Assembly (NCBI GenBank): GCA_964630365.1
Contig: CAZVUP010000005.1
Coordinates: 1,877 to 65,876 of the forward strand
Length of the DNA: 64,000 nucleotides
DNA from: an uncultured Muribaculaceae bacterium
Lineage (GTDB): Bacteria > Bacillota_I > Bacilli_A > RF39 > UBA660
Reading direction: 5' to 3'
Below are positions 20,613-29,238 of this stretch, piece by piece. The notes beneath the pieces were generated by a model that worked only from the letters and a program-made list of their open reading frames with translations, made no database searches and had not been told where the DNA came from. The translations under genes and the position numbers were made by a program. Numbering within the stretch: the first letter of the stretch is position 1; each line of letters opens with the position of its first letter.

Positions 20613-21950
20613 ATGGATTTAAAAGAAAAAGCAAAGTTATTTGCGATAAAAGCACATATGGGTCAAATACGCAAAAGTGAACCTGATAAACCAATGATTA
20701 TGCATCCGATTTCTGTTGGGAATTACTTAGAGAGTTTAGGTTGTGATGAAGCAGTTGTTGCCGCTGGATATTTACATGATGTTGTTGAAGATACTAGTTA
20801 TACTATCGAAGATATAAGAAAACATTTTAATGATGATATTGCGGACTTAGTTATGGTTGCTAGCGAACCTGATAAATCATTATCATGGGAAGAAAGAAAA
20901 CTGCATACAATTCAGTCGACAAGATTATTACCATTGAGAAAAAAAATGGTTATTTGTGCTGACAAAATTGATAATTTAGAAGATATAATGCTTAAAATAC
21001 AAAAAAGTGGTGTACGGGATTTTTCAGCATTTAAACGTGGTGAAGAACAACAAAAATGGTATTATACAAGCATGTATGAAAGTTTAATATATGGAGAAGA
21101 TGAAAATTTACCTATATTCAAAAAATTTAAAAGTATAATTGAGGCTGTTTTTGGTGGCTATGAAAATTCATTTTTAAGGGATACAATATTTGCTGGTAAT
21201 GATTTATATTATGAAGAATTAAAAAAATTACATGCTCAAAAATTAGAATTACAAAAATTAAGATCTTTATCTCCTTTAGCTAAACCTTTTGTTATTGAAT
21301 TTTGTGGGACACCTAGAACTGGGAAAACTACTATAATAAATAATTTATATGACTTTTTAAAAAAAGGTAATTTTAATGTCCAAATTATTGAAGAATTTAC
21401 AACTTCGAAGTATTATAGAGAAAATTTAAAAAACAACTTTAAAGAAACTGAATTAAGTATTAGAGATATTGCTATTGTTGAAGAAGTATATAAACAATTA
21501 TTAGAAGCTTTAAATTCTGGAAAAGAAATAATATTGATTGATAGATCTATAAATGATAGACAAATTTGGAACTATCGAAGATATCTAAGGGGTGAAATGT
21601 CTGAGGAACAATATCTTGATCTTAGAGAAAGGTATAGTGCCCTATCTAAAGAATTAATAGATTTTCTAGTAATAACATATGCAGATTCTTTAACTGCACT
21701 AAGAAGAGATTATAATTCAAGTTTAGCTTTGGAAAATAGAAGTTTTTTAAATATTCCAAATTTAGATGAATATAATCAATGTTTAAATGATTTGGAAGCA
21801 TTATTTGAAGGTAGCGTTGATTGTTTAGCCTTTATTGATACTAGTAATGTAGATATGGCAGATGTTTCTATTGATGTTAGTAAAAAAATAATGCCAGAAA
21901 TGAGAAAAAAATATATTAAAAATTTTAAACAAGCTTATAATTTGAAATAG
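20613..21950 (+). CDS. Fusion: SpoT/Mesh1-type HD (alarmone hydrolase-like) domain plus P-loop kinase-like domain
   Basis: N-terminal: AIKAHMGQIRKSEPDKPMIMHPISV...AAGYLHDVVEDT (RelA/SpoT HD_4 signature). C-terminal: Walker A FCGTPRTGKTTIIN, later ILIDRS (dNK/thymidylate-kinase-like DR). Confidence 0.65.
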   Translation: MDLKEKAKLFAIKAHMGQIRKSEPDKPMIMHPISVGNYLESLGCDEAVVAAGYLHDVVEDTSYTIEDIRKHFNDDIADLVMVASEPDKSLSWEERKLHTIQSTRLLPLRKKMVICADKIDNLEDIMLKIQKSGVRDFSAFKRGEEQQKWYYTSMYESLIYGEDENLPIFKKFKSIIEAVFGGYENSFLRDTIFAGNDLYYEELKKLHAQKLELQKLRSLSPLAKPFVIEFCGTPRTGKTTIINNLYDFLKKGNFNVQIIEEFTTSKYYRENLKNNFKETELSIRDIAIVEEVYKQLLEALNSGKEIILIDRSINDRQIWNYRRYLRGEMSEEQYLDLRERYSALSKELIDFLVITYADSLTALRRDYNSSLALENRSFLNIPNLDEYNQCLNDLEALFEGSVDCLAFIDTSNVDMADVSIDVSKKIMPEMRKKYIKNFKQAYNLK

Positions 21951-22037: not shown

Positions 22038-22442
22038 TTATAATGTTTTTGCTTCCTTTTCTTTTTCTAATCTAAGTATTATAGGAACACCGTCTGGATT
22101 TAAATGCCATAAATCTTTTGAATTAGCATATAAAAAGTTTCCATTGGCAACACCTAAAGCTACTAGTTTTTCTACATCTTCTGGTTGCCCCCATTTTGTG
22201 CCATCTTTGTCTTTATCTAGTGCAAGTAATGAAGCACTTCCACTACCAGCCAACTGATTAGTTAGACTGTCAATTGTACTTGAGTGTTCCTCTATTTTAG
22301 TAGAATCAAATACATAATCTTGTTTCAATCCCTCAACCATTTTGTAATTTTCACTTACATTCTCATTATTAATAGTATATAGCTCTACTGAACAGATTGA
22401 AAATATATTATCAACATTAGTTGCTGTTAACTTAATTTCCAA
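22038..22442 (-). CDS. Hypothetical protein (134 aa)
   Basis: ORF with plausible coding composition; no recognised motif. Confidence 0.4.
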   Translation of the reverse strand: MEIKLTATNVDNIFSICSVELYTINNENVSENYKMVEGLKQDYVFDSTKIEEHSSTIDSLTNQLAGSGSASLLALDKDKDGTKWGQPEDVEKLVALGVANGNFLYANSKDLWHLNPDGVPIILRLEKEKEAKTL

Positions 22443-22491
22443 AATATCACCTCTTTCTTTAATAATACCATAAAACTATTTATTAATTATA

Positions 22492-22890
22492 TTATTTATT
22501 TGTTTTCTTTGTTGTTTTAGACTTTTTTAATACAAATGCTGAATGCTTTAAATTTACAGTATCAGTTAATGGTTCTTGCCAATACTCTTCCACACACTCT
22601 AAGTCCTCAGTTTTCTTTACTATATGGCCTGATGCAAGAAATGACAAGAAATCTTCTAGATAATATGTATTTTTTCCATATCCTTTCTCTAGTGATCTTA
22701 ACTCTATCTTATAGCCATCAGCTAATTTATATCTTTCTTCTACTATTATACATTCAACCCATTTTTCACGTGTACTACTAGATGTATACGCTATTGATCC
22801 AAATGGAGTAATAACCCCCTCTATTGGATGCATTAATATAAAGTAATGGGCATTTTTATCAATATTTTCAAATTCTCGCATTAATATCAC
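22492..22890 (-). CDS. Hypothetical protein (132 aa)
   Basis: ORF with a basic C-terminal tail; no recognised motif. Confidence 0.4.
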   Translation of the reverse strand: MILMREFENIDKNAHYFILMHPIEGVITPFGSIAYTSSSTREKWVECIIVEERYKLADGYKIELRSLEKGYGKNTYYLEDFLSFLASGHIVKKTEDLECVEEYWQEPLTDTVNLKHSAFVLKKSKTTKKTNK

Positions 22891-23056: not shown

Positions 23057-24115
23057 ATGCATAGAAGTACATTTGTTGAGGTTAATTTAAAAAATTTAAA
23101 ATATAATGTTAAATCTTTAATTAATAAGTATAGCAATTATAAATATTATTTTGGTGTTGTTAAAGCTGACTGCTATGGGCATAGTGGATTAGAAACAGTA
23201 AAAACTATAATAGAAGCCGGTTGCAATTATCTTGCTGTTGCAACACTTGATGAGGCGTTAACTATAAGAAATGAAATAAAAGATATCCCTATATTATGTT
23301 TAAGTGTTGTAGATATTAAATTTATTCCAATATGTATAGAAAATAATATTACTATTACAATAAACAGTTATGATTATTTAAAAAATATAGATATTAATAA
23401 TAATAAATTAAAAGTTCATATTAAAATTAATACTGGTATGAATAGACTTGGTGTTAGTACAAAAGAGGAATTCAATATTGTATATGAATTAATAAGAAGA
23501 AAAGATTATGTATTAGAAGGAATATATACTCATATATATAATCCTACTGATGAAGTTGATACTTTAAAGCAGTTTAGAGAATTTGAAAAAATTACTAGTG
23601 ATATTAATTTAGCTGAAATTCCTATAGTACATGTCGGAGCAAGTGAAGCAACAGAACTTTATCCAAAAAGAGATTATGCAAATGGATGTCGATTAGGAAT
23701 TTCGATGTATGGATTAGTTGATTGTTCTGATATTGACTTTAAATCTACATTTAGTTTATATAGTAAAGTAATACAAATAAATGAAGTTGATCATGGAACT
23801 GTAGGATATAATGGTGCCTATAAAGTAAGTGGAAAAGAAAGGATAGCTGTTATTCCAATAGGATATGCTGACGGAATAATTAGAAAAAATACAGGTAGAT
23901 ATGTATATATCAATGATAAAAAATATAAAATAGTTGGTAATATTTGTATGGATATGTTATTTGTCAAAGTCGATGATTCTGTTAATATTGGGGATAAAGT
24001 TACTATTATAAGAGATATTAATCATATTAAAGAAATTGCTAAACATTTAGATACTATAACATATGAGGTAATCTGTTCTATTAGTAAAAGAGTTCCAAGA
24101 GTATATATTAAATAA
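23057..24115 (+). CDS. alr: Alanine racemase
   Basis: PLP-lysine motif GVVKADCYGHSG near the N-terminus and a C-terminal beta domain with ICMDMLFV; AAAGGAG RBS. Confidence 0.88.
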   Translation: MHRSTFVEVNLKNLKYNVKSLINKYSNYKYYFGVVKADCYGHSGLETVKTIIEAGCNYLAVATLDEALTIRNEIKDIPILCLSVVDIKFIPICIENNITITINSYDYLKNIDINNNKLKVHIKINTGMNRLGVSTKEEFNIVYELIRRKDYVLEGIYTHIYNPTDEVDTLKQFREFEKITSDINLAEIPIVHVGASEATELYPKRDYANGCRLGISMYGLVDCSDIDFKSTFSLYSKVIQINEVDHGTVGYNGAYKVSGKERIAVIPIGYADGIIRKNTGRYVYINDKKYKIVGNICMDMLFVKVDDSVNIGDKVTIIRDINHIKEIAKHLDTITYEVICSISKRVPRVYIK

Positions 24116-24116
24116 A

Positions 24117-24146
24117 AATAAAAACTAGTTAGCACTAGTTTTTCTT
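24117..24146. terminator. Bidirectional rho-independent terminator (alr / metallophosphoesterase gene)
   Basis: AAAACTAGT-TAGC-ACTAGTTTT hairpin flanked by A- and T-runs. Confidence 0.7.
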
Positions 24147-25720
24147 TATTTGTAATAAGTTAAAATATTAGATATCTCATTTTTTCTATCACTGGATTTT
24201 TGGATTGAACTAAGTATATTATGATATTCTTTATCACTTATAATGATGCGTAAGGCTTCTCCTAAAGATTTATTCATCCCAACAAAAGTTGGAACTTCAA
24301 TTTCTCTTTTTGCTAAGACTAATTCAGATTCTTTTGTTCTTTTAGAACTTTCATAAAAATATATATTTCTTAATAAAAATCTAATTAACATATTCTGTAA
24401 TTTTTCAATATCTATTTGAGAAGAGATGTCAACGCTTTCAATAATTCTATTTAGTTTTTTCAGTGCTAATATTTTCTTTTCATTATCTGTTTCGTAAATA
24501 TATTGTAAAAAGCAATTAATAATATCAGCTAATATATTAGTGGTTTGAATGCTAAATTTTGGATATCTAATTGATTCTGGATTATCTAGTCCAATTTTTG
24601 TAGCATATTTTTCTATTAGCGATTCCCCACTTGTCACTATAAAGTCATCTGATTTATAAAAGTCAGTAAGTAATATATTCATATCTAGATATCCTTTAAA
24701 TCTATTTTTCTTTGTAGCATAGATAAATGACAATATACAAATAAAATCTATCTTTTTATAAAAATCTGGATTAAATCCCTCTACTTGAACCAATTTTTCA
24801 TAAATCTCATTACTAAATTTTTTAAATAAATTTCTATTAGTTCCAACAGATTTTTTAGGATCAAATAGCTTAGTAACATCTAAGTCTGATGGATTAAAGA
24901 TTGTGTCATATTTTTTATTTAACATAAGTGATCCAAAAACTACAATTTCATTCTTGTATGGTGTTAATAATTCTAAAAGAACAGTATATAAATAGTCTGT
25001 AACTATTTTACTTTCTTGAAAGTGATTAAATTTACGCATTATCTCATGTAAAATTTCAAAAAACTCTTCTCCCAAAAATGGTTTATTGTTATTATTATAT
25101 CCTAAATATGATTTTGTTCTGCCAACTAATATCGGCCTATAATCAACCTGCTCACAAGCAACATTTTTTTCTCTTTCACCATTATTTATTAAAGTATGTT
25201 GATGGCCATGAAAATTTATCCCTGAATCTGAGTTTCTAAACTCTTCACACAAGAACTTATATAATATTGTATTAGGATGTTCATTACTTTCAACAGAAGC
25301 ATTTAATGGATAGTGAGAATAATAGTCACCATTAAATTTTACCGGAAAAAGAAATACATCTTCAAAGCCTGCTCTTAAATATATATCAGGCTTAGTTGAT
25401 ACTTCATGATTACCCATGATTAAAAACTTATGTCCATTAAGTTTTGAGACTAACTCCGCTAATCTTTCGCTTCCTACCTTAAAAGAAAAGTCTCCTAACA
25501 TAATGACAATATCATCTTCACCAACTACTTCATTGTGATTTGAAATAATATAGTCATTCATTGTTCTTAATGAAAGATCTAAATCAGTAGAGTTAAATAA
25601 TTCACTTCTTGTATGGCCGATTATATTCTTGTGGTCAAAATGTTGGTCACTTATAACAAAGACCTTTCTATCAGGATATTTACGTGCCAAAGTACTTGAA
25701 ATATCTTTAAAGTATCCCAT
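24146..25720 (-). CDS. Fusion: calcineurin-like metallophosphoesterase (N-terminal) plus Pol-beta-type nucleotidyltransferase-like domain, with a helical C-terminus
   Basis: MPE motifs VISDQHFDH, LGDFSF, GNHE, and HGHQH. Downstream: VVFGSLMLNKKYDTIFNPSDLDV (G-S...D-x-D) and YLDMNI (third acidic residue), as in minimal NTases. Confidence 0.6.
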   Translation of the reverse strand: MGYFKDISSTLARKYPDRKVFVISDQHFDHKNIIGHTRSELFNSTDLDLSLRTMNDYIISNHNEVVGEDDIVIMLGDFSFKVGSERLAELVSKLNGHKFLIMGNHEVSTKPDIYLRAGFEDVFLFPVKFNGDYYSHYPLNASVESNEHPNTILYKFLCEEFRNSDSGINFHGHQHTLINNGEREKNVACEQVDYRPILVGRTKSYLGYNNNNKPFLGEEFFEILHEIMRKFNHFQESKIVTDYLYTVLLELLTPYKNEIVVFGSLMLNKKYDTIFNPSDLDVTKLFDPKKSVGTNRNLFKKFSNEIYEKLVQVEGFNPDFYKKIDFICILSFIYATKKNRFKGYLDMNILLTDFYKSDDFIVTSGESLIEKYATKIGLDNPESIRYPKFSIQTTNILADIINCFLQYIYETDNEKKILALKKLNRIIESVDISSQIDIEKLQNMLIRFLLRNIYFYESSKRTKESELVLAKREIEVPTFVGMNKSLGEALRIIISDKEYHNILSSIQKSSDRKNEISNILTYYK

Positions 25721-25747
25721 ACCATAATCCCCCTAAATAGTGGCTAA

Positions 25748-25776
25748 ATTATACCAAAAAAATTGTATTTTGTCAA
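25748..25776 (-). promoter_or_regulatory. Consensus sigma-A-type promoter for the metallophosphoesterase-NTase gene
   Basis: Minus strand reads TTGACA (25776-25771), a 17-nt spacer, then TATAAT (25753-25748). Both hexamers match the consensus perfectly. Confidence 0.7.
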
Positions 25777-25807
25777 TTATGTAAACATGGGACAGTACTA
25801 ATGTAAA

Positions 25808-26518
25808 TTAATAATTTAATATCCATTCTATAATTAATTTTTTTATTTCATAATATTCTTGTTCTTCAAATTGCATATTTGCTATACAAAATCTTTTAGA
25901 TACTATATGTGAGCAAAACATACACTCATACAAATCAAAGCAATCCTGAATAAATAATGAATTACTTACTTTATTAGAACAAATAACATTATAACTATTA
26001 CTACAATCCTTAGAGTCGTCGCATCTAATACAGAAATTACAAGTACCAGATCTCTTTGATGCTAGTAAAAATTCACTATTACCACATGAATCACAATAAA
26101 TTATATTTTTAGAATCACTACAACCAGTACTTCTATAAACATTTTCACATCTATAAATAGTATCACTTTTTATTACATTAATAGAATCATAAACTCTTTC
26201 TGTTGTAGTTAAGTTAATCATATTCCATATATCAATTAATTCTTGTAGATTATTTATTTCTTTTTTAGGGATCATCCACCCTGTTTTTTTATCTTTCTTT
26301 TCCATATTTTTATTTGTTATAAATCTACCACTATTAATTGAATCAGCCCAAGTTATTTCATTTGTTGTTGAGTCATTTACTTGCTTAGGTAACTTAACAT
26401 CAAAGGCAAACTTTTCTAATAAAGTATCTATAGAAAAACTGTTTTCTCTTTCAAAAATACTTTTAAATATTTTATTAACAATTTCTAATGCGTATACATC
26501 ATTCATTTTTTCATACAC
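25808..26518 (-). CDS. Cysteine-rich protein of unknown function (236 aa)
   Basis: 13 Cys within about the last 100 aa, in short quasi-repeats (YCDSCGNS, CNFCIRCDDSKDCSNS, ECMFCSH). The start overlaps the upstream ATPase gene by 8 nt. Confidence 0.55.
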   Translation of the reverse strand: MYEKMNDVYALEIVNKIFKSIFERENSFSIDTLLEKFAFDVKLPKQVNDSTTNEITWADSINSGRFITNKNMEKKDKKTGWMIPKKEINNLQELIDIWNMINLTTTERVYDSINVIKSDTIYRCENVYRSTGCSDSKNIIYCDSCGNSEFLLASKRSGTCNFCIRCDDSKDCSNSYNVICSNKVSNSLFIQDCFDLYECMFCSHIVSKRFCIANMQFEEQEYYEIKKLIIEWILNY

Positions 26519-28367
26519 CTTCCTTATTGGTTGAATTAGATATTAAAATGTCTTTTAAATTTATATTACTATTTAACTTAAAACTAGCTTTAGAGTCATT
26601 GAATTTATTTTCTTTATTTCTATTTGTATTAGTATTCGTAATGTTTCTTTTAATTCTAGGAATACTTCGATAATCCAATGTATTCCCTTTAAATGCTGGT
26701 AGTAATATACCATTAGAATCTATTCTAGCAATGCATTCACGTGGTTGAAGTTCAGTTAATAATTTTATTTTTCTATCCTTAGAATCATCCAATGGTATTT
26801 TCATGTTAAAATTATCTACTAATATGTTAGCATCTAATTTTGATACTCTAAAGACGAAGTAGTTGATGACATTAGCAAATACAGAATCTTTTAATTTATC
26901 AGATATTTGATTAAAATATTGACTTGCTAATACTAAAGATAAATTATATTTGCGGGCTTCTGATAAAAATCTTGCTAAAATTGGATTTTCTACAACAGCA
27001 ACTTCATCAATAATAAATATAATATGTTGATTAATTGTTTTTTTCCCTATTATAGTTAATAATTGTTGCATTATTAATCCAGATATAGTTTTAGTAACTT
27101 TATCGCCTAGATTTGTTCTGTCTAGGGAGAATAAAGTTAAGAAATTTTCATGTATAGTATCAGTTAAATTTTTCTCATTTTGTTCTGAATTAAATACCGG
27201 TATCATTTCCATTTCATCTATAAAAGCTATGATTGGAGAGATAGCTTCACCATAAGACTTAGTTTTTAAATCATTGAAGTCTGAAAGAAAGAAATCTTTT
27301 ACACTAATTGGCAAGTCATATTTTAACTTTTTTAGTAGACTATTTCTATATTCTAAATCAAGGATTAATCTTCTTAAATTTCTGAAATTAAATGATTCAT
27401 TAATTAATAATAAGTATATAGCATGTCTTAAAACTCTTTCTAATTTTGAATTATATTGATCAGCAATTAATGATTTTAATAAATCTAATAAGAGTTCTGT
27501 TGATGCAACAACGTCTTCACTACTATTAATAAATAAATTAATACTGTCTAGACTACTTTTAAAATCAATAACCTTCCCTATACCACCTATGTCTTCTTCT
27601 AGTGCAGCATGTGGGTCAATAACTACTACTCTATATTTTGATTTGAGACTTTCATTTTTACTAATATTGTTAATTAGTAAACTGATGAATTTAGATTTAC
27701 CACATCCAGAGGAGCCTATTATAATTGAATGCTTATCAAAACTAAAATTATTCTGATTTAAATAAAACTTTCCTTGTAAATATGGAAATGTATCAACAGA
27801 TAATAAAGCATTATTAGAGTCAGTATTTAATAAGTGCAATATTTTATTTATCTCTAAGTATTTAGGTGGACTCTTATAAAAATATCTTTTATTCCCTTCA
27901 AAGTCTACCGATAATATACTTTTGGGAATAGTAAATAAACAATTATATTTTTTTATTTTATTGTTTTTAAGAAGATAAAAACTGACTTTTGATAAAATCT
28001 TATTTTCATATATTTTAAGAAATATAATTTCAAGGTATTTAAAAGCACCTTTATTTTTCACTTCACTATAGTTTATTATATCTATGATACTACTACCAAC
28101 TTTGGGTAAAGAAATTAATGTGCAAACTTGTTTAGGTTTTTTAATTCTTTTTACAGGTTTTAATAAGAAAGAATTTAAATTATTTATTGTCGATGGTAAA
28201 CTACAATTTGTTTCAACAAAATATCTTAGTTGATTTTTGTCATTTATGATAGTTATTTGCCAGTTTCTTAAAATGCCATTATAGTTTGATATAGTCTTAA
28301 TTAACTCTAACCATTCTTCTTTAGAGATATATTTCTTTGTCAAATATATTTCTGACGTTAACTCCAT
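26511..28367 (-). CDS. HerA/FtsK-superfamily P-loop ATPase (DUF87-like)
   Basis: Walker A IIIGSSGCGKSKF, VVVIDPHAALEE (compare HerA iDPhGEY), Walker B IIFIIDEVAVV, and LVLASQ, with an approximately 210-aa N-terminal beta-rich domain. Confidence 0.7.
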   Translation of the reverse strand: MELTSEIYLTKKYISKEEWLELIKTISNYNGILRNWQITIINDKNQLRYFVETNCSLPSTINNLNSFLLKPVKRIKKPKQVCTLISLPKVGSSIIDIINYSEVKNKGAFKYLEIIFLKIYENKILSKVSFYLLKNNKIKKYNCLFTIPKSILSVDFEGNKRYFYKSPPKYLEINKILHLLNTDSNNALLSVDTFPYLQGKFYLNQNNFSFDKHSIIIGSSGCGKSKFISLLINNISKNESLKSKYRVVVIDPHAALEEDIGGIGKVIDFKSSLDSINLFINSSEDVVASTELLLDLLKSLIADQYNSKLERVLRHAIYLLLINESFNFRNLRRLILDLEYRNSLLKKLKYDLPISVKDFFLSDFNDLKTKSYGEAISPIIAFIDEMEMIPVFNSEQNEKNLTDTIHENFLTLFSLDRTNLGDKVTKTISGLIMQQLLTIIGKKTINQHIIFIIDEVAVVENPILARFLSEARKYNLSLVLASQYFNQISDKLKDSVFANVINYFVFRVSKLDANILVDNFNMKIPLDDSKDRKIKLLTELQPRECIARIDSNGILLPAFKGNTLDYRSIPRIKRNITNTNTNRNKENKFNDSKASFKLNSNINLKDILISNSTNKEGV

Positions 28368-28402
28368 AATCCGTCACCTCGTAATAAAATATATCAAAAA
28401 TT

Positions 28403-28437
28403 GAAAATAAAAAACTGACTTTTTAATAATCAGTTTT
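28403..28437 (-). terminator. Rho-independent terminator after the AraC-family gene
   Basis: AAACTGA ... TCAGTTT hairpin followed on the minus strand by TTTTTTATTTT. It separates the AraC gene from the ATPase operon. Confidence 0.6.
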
Positions 28438-28443
28438 GTCAGT

Positions 28444-29238
28444 TTAAAAAATTGCAACTAAGAAATCTGTTATACCATCATGATAGTGTTCTAATTCAGG
28501 TATTTCTTTTAAATTATATTTGACTGATGGTAGAAATTCACCATAAAATTTATGGGATACTTCTTGGATATCTTTTGCATCTTGAGAATTAATTCTAAAT
28601 CTTAACCATTTACTTTTAGGTATTTTAATGTGCTCAAATTCCATAATTTCTTTATCATATAAACAGTAATATTTTTGACTTTCTTCGCGCTCAACATCAT
28701 AAGTAATCATGCCATATTGAATTCTACCATATTTATTTAGATATTTATCTTCGGTTATTTTAAAAAAGTTTGGAGCATCTTCACTAATTTTATCATTGCT
28801 TGTGGTAATACCTACTCCATATAAATTAATTTCATCAAGTGTAACTATTTCATAATCTAATTCCGTAGCAATACTTATGTCTTCATTAAAAACAATTCTA
28901 GGAAAATTTTTTAATTTAGTTTCAGTAGTGACTAGACTTGGTTTGATGCCATGAAACCGCTCAAATGCTCGTGAAAATGATGTAGCATTATCATATTGAT
29001 ATTTAACAGCAACATCTATCACTTTTAATTTACCTTCGTATAGGTCAAATCCTGCATTAGATAATCTTCTTTTTCTAATATATTCTGAGAGTGAAATACC
29101 CGCTATCATAGTAAATAATCTTTGCATAGTATAAACATTTACTCCTAACATTTTTGCTAGAATCTCATAACTAATTTCTTCTTCCAGATTATTATCAATA
29201 TACTCAGTTATTTCATTTAAACTTTTATAGATATTCAA
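28444..29238 (-). CDS. AraC-family transcriptional regulator with GyrI-like effector-binding domain
   Basis: N-terminal double HTH (LAKMLGVNVYTMQRLF...YDNATSFSRAFERFHGIKPS) and a C-terminal GyrI/SOUL-like domain. Confidence 0.8.
   Translation of the reverse strand: MNIYKSLNEITEYIDNNLEEEISYEILAKMLGVNVYTMQRLFTMIAGISLSEYIRKRRLSNAGFDLYEGKLKVIDVAVKYQYDNATSFSRAFERFHGIKPSLVTTETKLKNFPRIVFNEDISIATELDYEIVTLDEINLYGVGITTSNDKISEDAPNFFKITEDKYLNKYGRIQYGMITYDVEREESQKYYCLYDKEIMEFEHIKIPKSKWLRFRINSQDAKDIQEVSHKFYGEFLPSVKYNLKEIPELEHYHDGITDFLVAIF

Follow-up and report, generated by a model that had tools for sequence, protein, structure and literature searches.

A 64,000-nucleotide stretch of DNA from an uncultured bacterium (contig CAZVUP010000005.1, positions 1,877 to 65,876, of assembly GCA_964630365.1; hereafter the window), deposited as Muribaculaceae and placed by GTDB in the Bacilli lineage RF39/UBA660, contains a minus-strand gene for a two-domain protein. 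The bacterium has a low GC content and is found in gut metagenomes, of ruminants among others. The product, P0001, is predicted to join a calcineurin-like metallophosphoesterase (MPE) to a nucleotidyltransferase (NTase) of the Pol-beta fold. We infer, at a level of confidence a little short of even, that the fusion is a heal-and-extend enzyme for the 3′ ends of RNA or tRNA. The pairing had been proposed in a sequence-only reading of the same DNA, and it was borne out by a Pfam PF00149 match above the cut-off, a phrog_547 match, the topology of an AlphaFold2 (AF2) model, Foldseek matches, and NTP_transf_2 matches in two homologues. The gene and its domains are as follows.

24146 to 25720, minus strand: coding sequence of the 524-residue fusion P0001, stop codon included, with an ATG start; full-length homologues (34-76% identity) share the same Met.
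25091 to 25720, minus strand: predicted MPE domain of the COG4186/phrog_547 type, residues 1-210, from Pfam, phrog, PDB, and BFVD matches.
25016 to 25090, minus strand: variable linker followed by the first helix toward the NTase domain, residues 211-235, from low conservation, indels, and the secondary structure of the model.
24536 to 25015, minus strand: predicted Pol-beta-type NTase core, residues 236-395, from the AF2 topology, Foldseek, invariant residues, and NTP_transf_2 in 2 of 18 homologues.
24149 to 24535, minus strand: predicted helical second lobe, residues 396-524, from AF2 helices at 396-523, a bilobed MenT3 match (TM-score about 0.5), and conservation.

The N-terminal domain carries the motifs DQHFDH (residues 25-30), GDFSF (76-80), GNHE (103-106), and HGHQH (171-175). 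All five metal-ligand motifs of an MPE are intact (D25-x-H27, G76-D77, G103-N104-H105-E106, H136, and G172-H173-x-H175). Conservation was assessed throughout in 22 homologues of 28-71% identity. All of them share D25, H30, D77, N104, H105, H136, H173, and H175, and at least 90% keep H27. The Pfam model PF00149 (Metallophos) matched the domain with 27 bits against a curated cut-off of 21.5, and phrog_547, a "phosphoesterase" family, matched with an E-value of 1.5e-31. The sole solved relative found by sequence was aq_1665 of Aquifex aeolicus (PDB 1xm7; E 2.3e-6), and the best structural matches in BFVD were COG4186 phosphoesterases of phages (target TM-score 0.55-0.79). Judged from its sequence, the domain is an intact calcineurin-like MPE of the COG4186/phrog_547 subfamily. 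Aq_1665 and the phage COG4186/phrog_547 phosphoesterases are its nearest relatives in sequence and structure but, unlike P0001, they are single-domain proteins of 165-205 residues.

The C-terminal half contains VVFGSLMLNKKYDTIFNPSDLDV at residues 259-281 and YLDMNI at residues 344-349. All six motifs listed in the sequence-only reading, four in the MPE and these two, are therefore present, and their key residues are invariant among the homologues. The Pol-beta pattern hG[GS] x9-14 [DE]h[DE]h is matched by G263-S264 and, 14 residues on, D279-L-D281, and a third carboxylate, D346, sits on a predicted strand (residues 340-349). G263, S264, D279, D281, D346, and D359 are invariant, and K422, R447, N452, and R461 of the helical lobe are nearly so. 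By this measure both active sites are fully conserved, H27 nearly so. AF2 modelled the full chain with a pLDDT of 92.1 and a pTM of 0.91, and the NTase domain alone with a pLDDT of 91.2. The modelled core runs in the order helix, strand ending in G263-S264, helix, strand with D279-x-D281, helix, and antiparallel strands bearing D346, and an all-helical lobe of about 130 residues (396-523) follows it. The NTase fold expected in the middle domain is present in both the model and the Foldseek matches; the helical tail described in the sequence-only reading also exists, but with a length of about 130 rather than 180 residues.

The top Foldseek matches of the C-terminal domain in the PDB were all nucleotidyltransferases. 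The 11 best were to MenT3/TglT (Rv1045), JHP933, and 5uvd (E 9e-6 to 1.2e-4; TM-score 0.4-0.5), lower ranks were held by OASL, cGAS, TUTases, and Pol beta, and the match probability was 0.96-1.0 for MenT3, JHP933, OASL, and Pol beta. In the C-terminal lobe of MenT3, motif III supplies the catalytic Lys K189 and motif IV the Asp D211. Sequence profiles from Pfam, NCBIfam, PADLOC, and the PDB gave no match to residues 236-524 of P0001; among 18 homologues, Pfam NTP_transf_2 matched two, both diverged (best E 8.8e-5), and MTPAP-like_central matched one. On the strength of the model, we regard the C-terminal domain as a Pol-beta-fold NTase whose overall shape is nearest to that of the DUF1814 tRNA-tailing toxins. 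It appears from the profile searches to represent a previously unclassified NTase family that is covered by no Pfam model. Membership of PF08843 by sequence was considered and rejected, as bridges through Pfam, PDB profiles, and hhalign all failed.

The pTM of 0.91 for the whole chain indicates a fixed arrangement of the two domains, and where two intact catalytic domains are obligately and rigidly joined, the simplest reading is that they carry out coupled, consecutive steps on one substrate. In our proposal both domains would act in series on an RNA 3′ end, most likely that of tRNA. The MPE would first take off a blocking 2′,3′-cyclic phosphate or 3′-phosphate, the kind of end left by ribotoxins and metal-independent RNases, or would trim a damaged terminal nucleotide. 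A 3′-OH would thereby be restored, and the NTase would lengthen it from NTPs without a template. The outcome would be a one-polypeptide enzyme for RNA-end repair or remodelling. The closest functional analogy is the CCA-adding enzyme of E. coli, which holds in one chain a template-independent tRNA 3′-end NTase with a Pol-beta head and an HD phosphohydrolase able to clear 2′,3′-cyclic or 3′-phosphate ends; it differs from P0001 in having an HD instead of a calcineurin-like fold and a class II head, neck, body, and tail instead of a MenT-like lobe, and it shows no sequence relation. For the extension step, MenT3 adds pyrimidines to tRNA 3′-CCA ends (PMC7450476). For the healing step, the Clostridium thermocellum enzyme CthPnkp and lambda phosphatase are MPEs that turn RNA 2′,3′-cyclic phosphate and 3′-phosphate ends into 3′-OH (PMC2190708), and by analogy they would provide a precedent for an MPE as a healer of RNA 3′ ends.

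We then considered where the fusion occurs. Full-length homologues of 34-76% identity fall into about 54 clusters. In contigs sampled at one genome per species there were about 30 full-length loci, labelled uncultured Bacilli, Erysipelotrichaceae, Tenericutes, or Bacillales, plus a few that were mis-binned. For genomic context, 87 loci (840 kb) were fetched; about 35 of these carry full-length homologues, and they come from metagenome-assembled genomes (MAGs) of gut or rumen Bacilli. An exhaustive HMM search of 1.84 billion proteins with the C-terminal-domain profile returned 61 representatives, all of them fusions of about 480-536 residues or fragments thereof. A stand-alone form of the NTase domain was considered and rejected, the short HMM matches being 5′-truncated fragments of the fusion. 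The C-terminal domain had no match in 50,697 phage genomes and none in IMG/VR. In a tree of MPE domains the fused MPEs form one clade with support of 100/97, an indication that the fusion arose once and later diversified within the group. The fusion is confined to uncultured gut and rumen Bacilli, it was not described in the literature that we searched (DUF1814 with metallophosphoesterase, and COG4186), and there are no source names for its family.

Two contigs labelled otherwise also carry the fusion, one as Phocaeicola vulgatus (L011) and one as Muribaculaceae (L024). These are probably mis-binned rather than copies in Bacteroidota, because the neighbours in L011 are those of a Bacilli MAG (L012) and the downstream neighbours in L024 are those of L023. 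In 3 of the roughly 35 loci the fusion is split into two open reading frames (ORFs), namely L040:5917-7533, L021, and L025 (201+293, 297+194, and 97+423 residues), and the break in L040 falls at the end of the MPE domain. From their sequences, these splits may be frameshifts, pseudogenes, or errors of MAG assembly.

The phosphoesterase half has many relatives in phages. The phrog_547 MPE is abundant in large lytic phages (857 records), and we inspected its neighbourhood in seven genomes from six lineages, in which all sampled MPEs were confirmed as phrog_547. In five of the six lineages it lies beside genes for RNA ligase or polynucleotide-kinase-like proteins or among tRNA genes. In coliphage slur16, a polynucleotide-kinase-like P-loop gene (AAA_33; phrog_505, E 1.8e-9) lies 8 nucleotides 5′ of the MPE gene, which is divergent from a gene for an Rnl1-type RNA ligase and adjoins a tRNA array. 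Klebsiella phage K54_rec6 and the T5-like Vibrio phage AG74 show the same trio of ligase, ATPase, and MPE. The MPE accompanies RtcB, an RNA ligase (PF09414), and NADAR in Listeria phage LMTA-94, lies between a tRNA array and a 3′-phosphatase/5′-polynucleotide kinase gene in Stenotrophomonas phage IME-SM1, and sits within a tRNA array in Enterococcus phage VRE9_1. Together, the phage genes for MPE, RNA ligase, and kinase-like P-loop proteins, which recur in unrelated large phages and often adjoin the tRNA array, look like a split Pnkp-type RNA-repair set, and it seems that they have not been annotated as one. The trio loci, from Vequintavirinae, the T5-like Vibrio phage, and the Listeria Pecentumvirus, are L089:2544-4552, L091:2237-4546, L092:3989-6822, and L090:1-4564. 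CthPnkp and lambda phosphatase resemble the MPE of P0001 in being binuclear MPEs (PMC2190708), and the kinase and ligase genes found beside phrog_547 in phages recall a split Pnkp. CthPnkp differs from P0001 in that its MPE is of another subfamily and has as fusion partners a kinase and a ligase-type adenylyltransferase in place of a Pol-beta NTase.

A counterpart of the fusion in the form of two genes was found in a MAG of Ca. Enterousia (L039:5066-6519, identical to L095:4072-5525), where the start of a phrog_547 MPE gene overlaps the stop of a genuine AbiEii gene (PF08843, E 1.6e-18). The pair is without an antitoxin, is convergent with rplS-trmD-rimM-rpsP, and lies near tsaD. It resembles P0001 in combining the same two enzyme types, its MPE being 33% identical to that of P0001, and in that its genes are translationally coupled, have a housekeeping neighbourhood, and belong to a gut bacterium. 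It differs in consisting of two genes, in the order NTase then MPE, in having a recognisable PF08843 NTase, and in belonging to a different phylum; nor does the MPE tree place its MPE as the specific sister of the fused clade. The partnership of NTase and phosphoesterase therefore also exists as two genes, and the sequence-only reading, although right about the fusion, overstated how unusual the pairing is. Among the neighbours of 45 cellular relatives that have the MPE alone, this was the one AbiEii partner found. Other tightly coupled neighbours that were scanned near such relatives were unrelated enzymes, among them a histidine phosphatase, a pantothenate kinase, an HAD hydrolase, a nitroreductase, and a second MPE. 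In some Lachnospiraceae (L079:6004-7250; L085:5986-7241), a second, different Metallophos gene directly follows the phrog_547-like MPE gene.

The likeness to MenT toxins raises the alternative that P0001 is a domesticated tRNA-tailing switch of MenT/AbiEii type with a built-in reset. Here the NTase would block tRNAs with extra 3′ nucleotides and the MPE would remove an inhibitory auto-phosphate from the active-site loop of the NTase or erase the tails, yielding a reversible brake on translation or a toxin-antitoxin-like unit in one chain. MenT3/TglT toxins are the best structural relatives of the NTase domain, and MenT toxins are shut off by phosphorylation of a Ser or Thr adjacent to the DxD motif, S78 in MenT3 and T39 in MenT1 (PMC7450476, PMC11375011); a phosphatase is not mentioned in the latter paper. 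In P0001, the residue immediately before D279-x-D281 is S278, a position held by Ser or Thr in 19 of the 22 homologues. The Ca. Enterousia pair lacks an antitoxin, and phrog_547 proteins are called Ser/Thr phosphatases in some phage annotations. However, the MenT phospho-acceptor register [ST]-x-D is not matched by S278-D279, and the position is G or H in the other three homologues. A growth-arresting toxin with a conserved consensus promoter and no antitoxin would be hard to maintain. Furthermore, the gene is chromosomal and non-mobile, had no PADLOC hit, and has no copy on viral contigs, and the phage phrog_547 enzymes function without an NTase partner. We therefore judge the switch to be distinctly unlikely.

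Returning to the heal-and-extend enzyme, several observations weigh against it. The activities and the substrate ascribed to the two domains are predictions from sequence and structure. The structural likeness to MenT3 reaches a TM-score of only about 0.5; PF08843 (DUF1814) matched 0 of 18 C-terminal domains at E ≤ 10, a profile of this domain gave 0 hits among PDB sequences, and its hhalign comparison with the Enterousia AbiEii gave a probability of 0.1, which is no match. P0001 is not basic. The MPE has a mean isoelectric point of about 6.3, the NTase core one of 6.1, and the helical lobe one of 7.7, and such near-neutral values would typically be out of character for a dedicated tRNA binder. 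The phage sample was small, at seven genomes from six lineages, and large phages in any case carry many RNA-repair and tRNA genes in their accessory regions. In Bastille-like phages of Bacillus (BigBertha), the MPE lies between a DnaB-like helicase and SbcD/SbcC, a context that points to DNA. Lastly, genes for RNA ligase, kinase, or tRNA are not conserved neighbours of the fusion itself.

The BigBertha arrangement, with its SbcD/SbcC-type nucleases, speaks for a role in processing DNA ends, in which the MPE would clean 3′-blocked ends and the NTase would fill or tail them. This would make P0001 a minimal analogue of the phosphoesterase and polymerase modules of bacterial PolX-PHP or LigD, in which a phosphoesterase that cleans 3′ ends is joined to a nucleotide-adding domain. 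The palm domains of Pol beta and PolX do match the NTase core over about 110 residues with a probability of 0.96-1.0. Yet P0001 is without the 8-kDa, thumb, and fingers domains of Pol X, its second lobe is MenT-like and not polymerase-like, the MPE keeps company with RNA-repair or tRNA genes in five of the six phage lineages sampled, and the fusion has no DNA-repair neighbours. PolX-PHP and LigD also differ from P0001 in acting on DNA and in belonging to different phosphoesterase and polymerase families. These considerations leave DNA-end processing a poor prospect.

The acidic to neutral character of P0001 would also suit an enzyme of small molecules, whose NTase makes a nucleotide signal or nucleotidylates a metabolite or drug and whose MPE degrades the product or pyrophosphate. 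Many MPEs are phosphodiesterases of cyclic nucleotides or dinucleotides, a general point in its favour, and Foldseek gave weaker matches to OASL, cGAS, and small alarmone synthetases (E 1e-3 to 7e-2). The TM-score to cGAS and OAS was, however, about 0.27-0.32, compared with about 0.5 for MenT3, and antibiotic NTases were absent from the 50 best structural matches. The fusion loci showed no conserved neighbour and no partner that could serve as effector, receptor, or transporter. Moreover, if a synthase and a hydrolase were rigidly and constitutively joined, a futile cycle would result in the absence of regulation. A CD-NTase or CBASS-like system was likewise not indicated, given these TM-scores, no PADLOC hit, and no conserved partner. 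On balance we hold a small-molecule function to be improbable. Of the two functions suggested in the sequence-only reading, making and degrading a nucleotide signal, with no receptor or effector partner at hand, fits worse, and processing nucleic-acid ends fits better, because the best structural relatives of the NTase are tRNA 3′-end NTases and the phage MPEs lie in RNA-repair clusters.

We next examined the expression signals of the fusion gene and its neighbourhood. The signals, all read from the sequence, are listed below.

25771 to 25776, minus strand: putative −35 hexamer TTGACA, 12 of 12 consensus positions matched together with the −10 hexamer across a 17-nucleotide spacer; equivalent promoters lie 5′ of homologues.
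25748 to 25756, minus strand: putative extended −10 element TGgTATAAT (−10 hexamer 25753-25748), a consensus match.
25728 to 25734, minus strand: putative ribosome-binding site AGGGGGA, 7 nucleotides 5′ of the ATG.
24111 to 24150, minus strand: terminator-like A/U-rich hairpin followed by a U-run, common to the fusion gene and the convergent alanine racemase gene (alr).

The promoter described in the sequence-only reading was confirmed as TTGACA, a 17-nucleotide spacer, and TATAAT, with an extended −10 TG in addition, and it is the sole 12 of 12 match within 23900-28600. Transcription is predicted from the promoter spacing to start near 25741. As to the gene itself, which had been placed at 24146-25776, the former boundary holds, but 25776 marks where the −35 hexamer begins at its 5′ side and lies outside the coding sequence, which occupies 24146-25720. 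The hairpin 3′ of the gene folds as RNA with −11.3 kcal/mol (z = −3.9), and 0 of 200 shuffled sequences fold as well; it was missed by a consensus terminator scanner because its stem has few G-C pairs. Short, low-depth contigs from public metatranscriptomes overlap portions of the gene, which is weak evidence that it is expressed.

The fusion gene lies directly downstream of genes for a HerA-like ATPase and a Cys-rich protein (P0002 and P0003), as the sequence-only reading had noted, and it was suspected there of encoding a third component of their module. The Cys-rich ORF ends at 25808 on the same strand, and the 87-nucleotide spacer that separates it from the fusion gene contains no significant RNA structure and no predicted intrinsic terminator, so that read-through is possible in this genome. 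Nonetheless, tblastn with P0002 and P0003 found no relative in the 87 loci (840 kb). Neighbours of the homologues differ, with no family recurring beyond close relatives in the roughly 35 fusion loci, and the homologues keep a promoter of their own whatever gene is upstream. In the closer homologues this promoter is near consensus (11-12 of 12 positions, often with the TG) and lies 10-33 nucleotides 5′ of the start; many distant homologues have sites resembling TTGAC[AT]-17-TAnnAT at an equal distance. Because the neighbours vary, the ATPase pair does not co-occur, and the promoter recurs, we take the fusion gene to be an independent unit. Its adjacency to the pair is peculiar to this genome, and its membership of the module, to which we give scarcely any credence, is close to refuted.

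A cognate antitoxin of AbiEi/COG5340 or MenA type adjacent to the fusion was sought as well, and no recurring family was found in the roughly 35 loci, although not every neighbour was profile-scanned. For defence systems, neither PADLOC nor NCBIfam gave a hit for the fusion. The gene is chromosomal and stands in non-mobile contexts; near it in the window are the core chromosomal genes for DnaE, BipA/TypA, an HAD hydrolase, an HD-plus-P-loop protein, alr, and an AraC/GyrI regulator. The HD-plus-P-loop protein (20613-21950, plus strand), about 2 kb from the fusion gene, has 445 residues and combines HD_4 (a SpoT-type HD hydrolase domain) with an AAA_28 P-loop domain. Between its gene and alr are two adjoining ORFs of 134 and 132 residues (22038-22890, minus strand) without a Pfam match. 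A link to tRNA through a deaminase gene located 5′ of the fusion in L005, L007, and L001 was considered and rejected, because the motifs of the deaminase are guanine deaminase-like and not those of TadA and because the local synteny is confined to four related loci. In the window the deaminase gene is 30 kb from the fusion gene.

Both superfamilies are already known, and the logic of combining an NTase with a phosphoesterase has precedents in the CCA-adding enzyme with HD domain, PolX-PHP, LigD, and Pnkp. The comparators of the DUF1814 (PF08843) group, MenT3/TglT (Rv1045) and MenT1 of M. tuberculosis, AbiEii of S. agalactiae, and JHP933 of H. pylori, share with P0001 the bilobed Pol-beta fold, the core G-[GS]...D-x-D, and a helical second lobe with conserved basic residues, and they are described as adding nucleotides to the 3′ ends of tRNA without a template. 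They differ from P0001 in sequence, with about 10% identity and no match of P0001 to PF08843 or their profiles, and in the register of the phospho-acceptor, which is not conserved. P0001, moreover, is non-mobile, has no antitoxin gene, and is fused to a phosphoesterase; this non-mobile, antitoxin-less setting differs from that of all characterised MenT/AbiE systems. To our knowledge, MenT/AbiEii NTases are known only as tRNA-disabling toxins, and we know of no described enzyme that prepares or reverses their substrates. A MenT-like fold fused to an intact MPE, non-mobile, with a strong promoter of its own and no antitoxin, suggests recruitment for a constructive or regulated task.

A more far-reaching form of the heal-and-extend proposal, which we offer as unlikely, is that P0001 would be a self-contained tRNA 3′-end repair enzyme. 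A domesticated toxin fold of MenT/AbiEii type and an end-healing phosphoesterase of phage type would together restore acceptor ends cut by ribotoxins or RNases with cyclic-phosphate ends. In gut Bacilli with reduced genomes, such an enzyme might stand in for the canonical CCA-adding enzyme in repair, or conceivably in all of its functions, and the MenT-like NTase and phrog_547 MPE, fused or paired, would constitute an unrecognised, widespread module of RNA-end maintenance. The window contains one tRNA gene, and its CCA is encoded in the DNA. No class II CCA head motif turned up when the window and the fetched loci were crudely scanned for it, a result that says little.

The analysis defines an NTase family that lies outside all Pfam models, and the large phrog_547/COG4186 family gains a testable role in RNA-end healing. 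If the heal-and-extend reading is true, the fusion would provide an added route of RNA repair in poorly known gut Bacilli, and also a compact enzyme for manipulating RNA 3′ ends.

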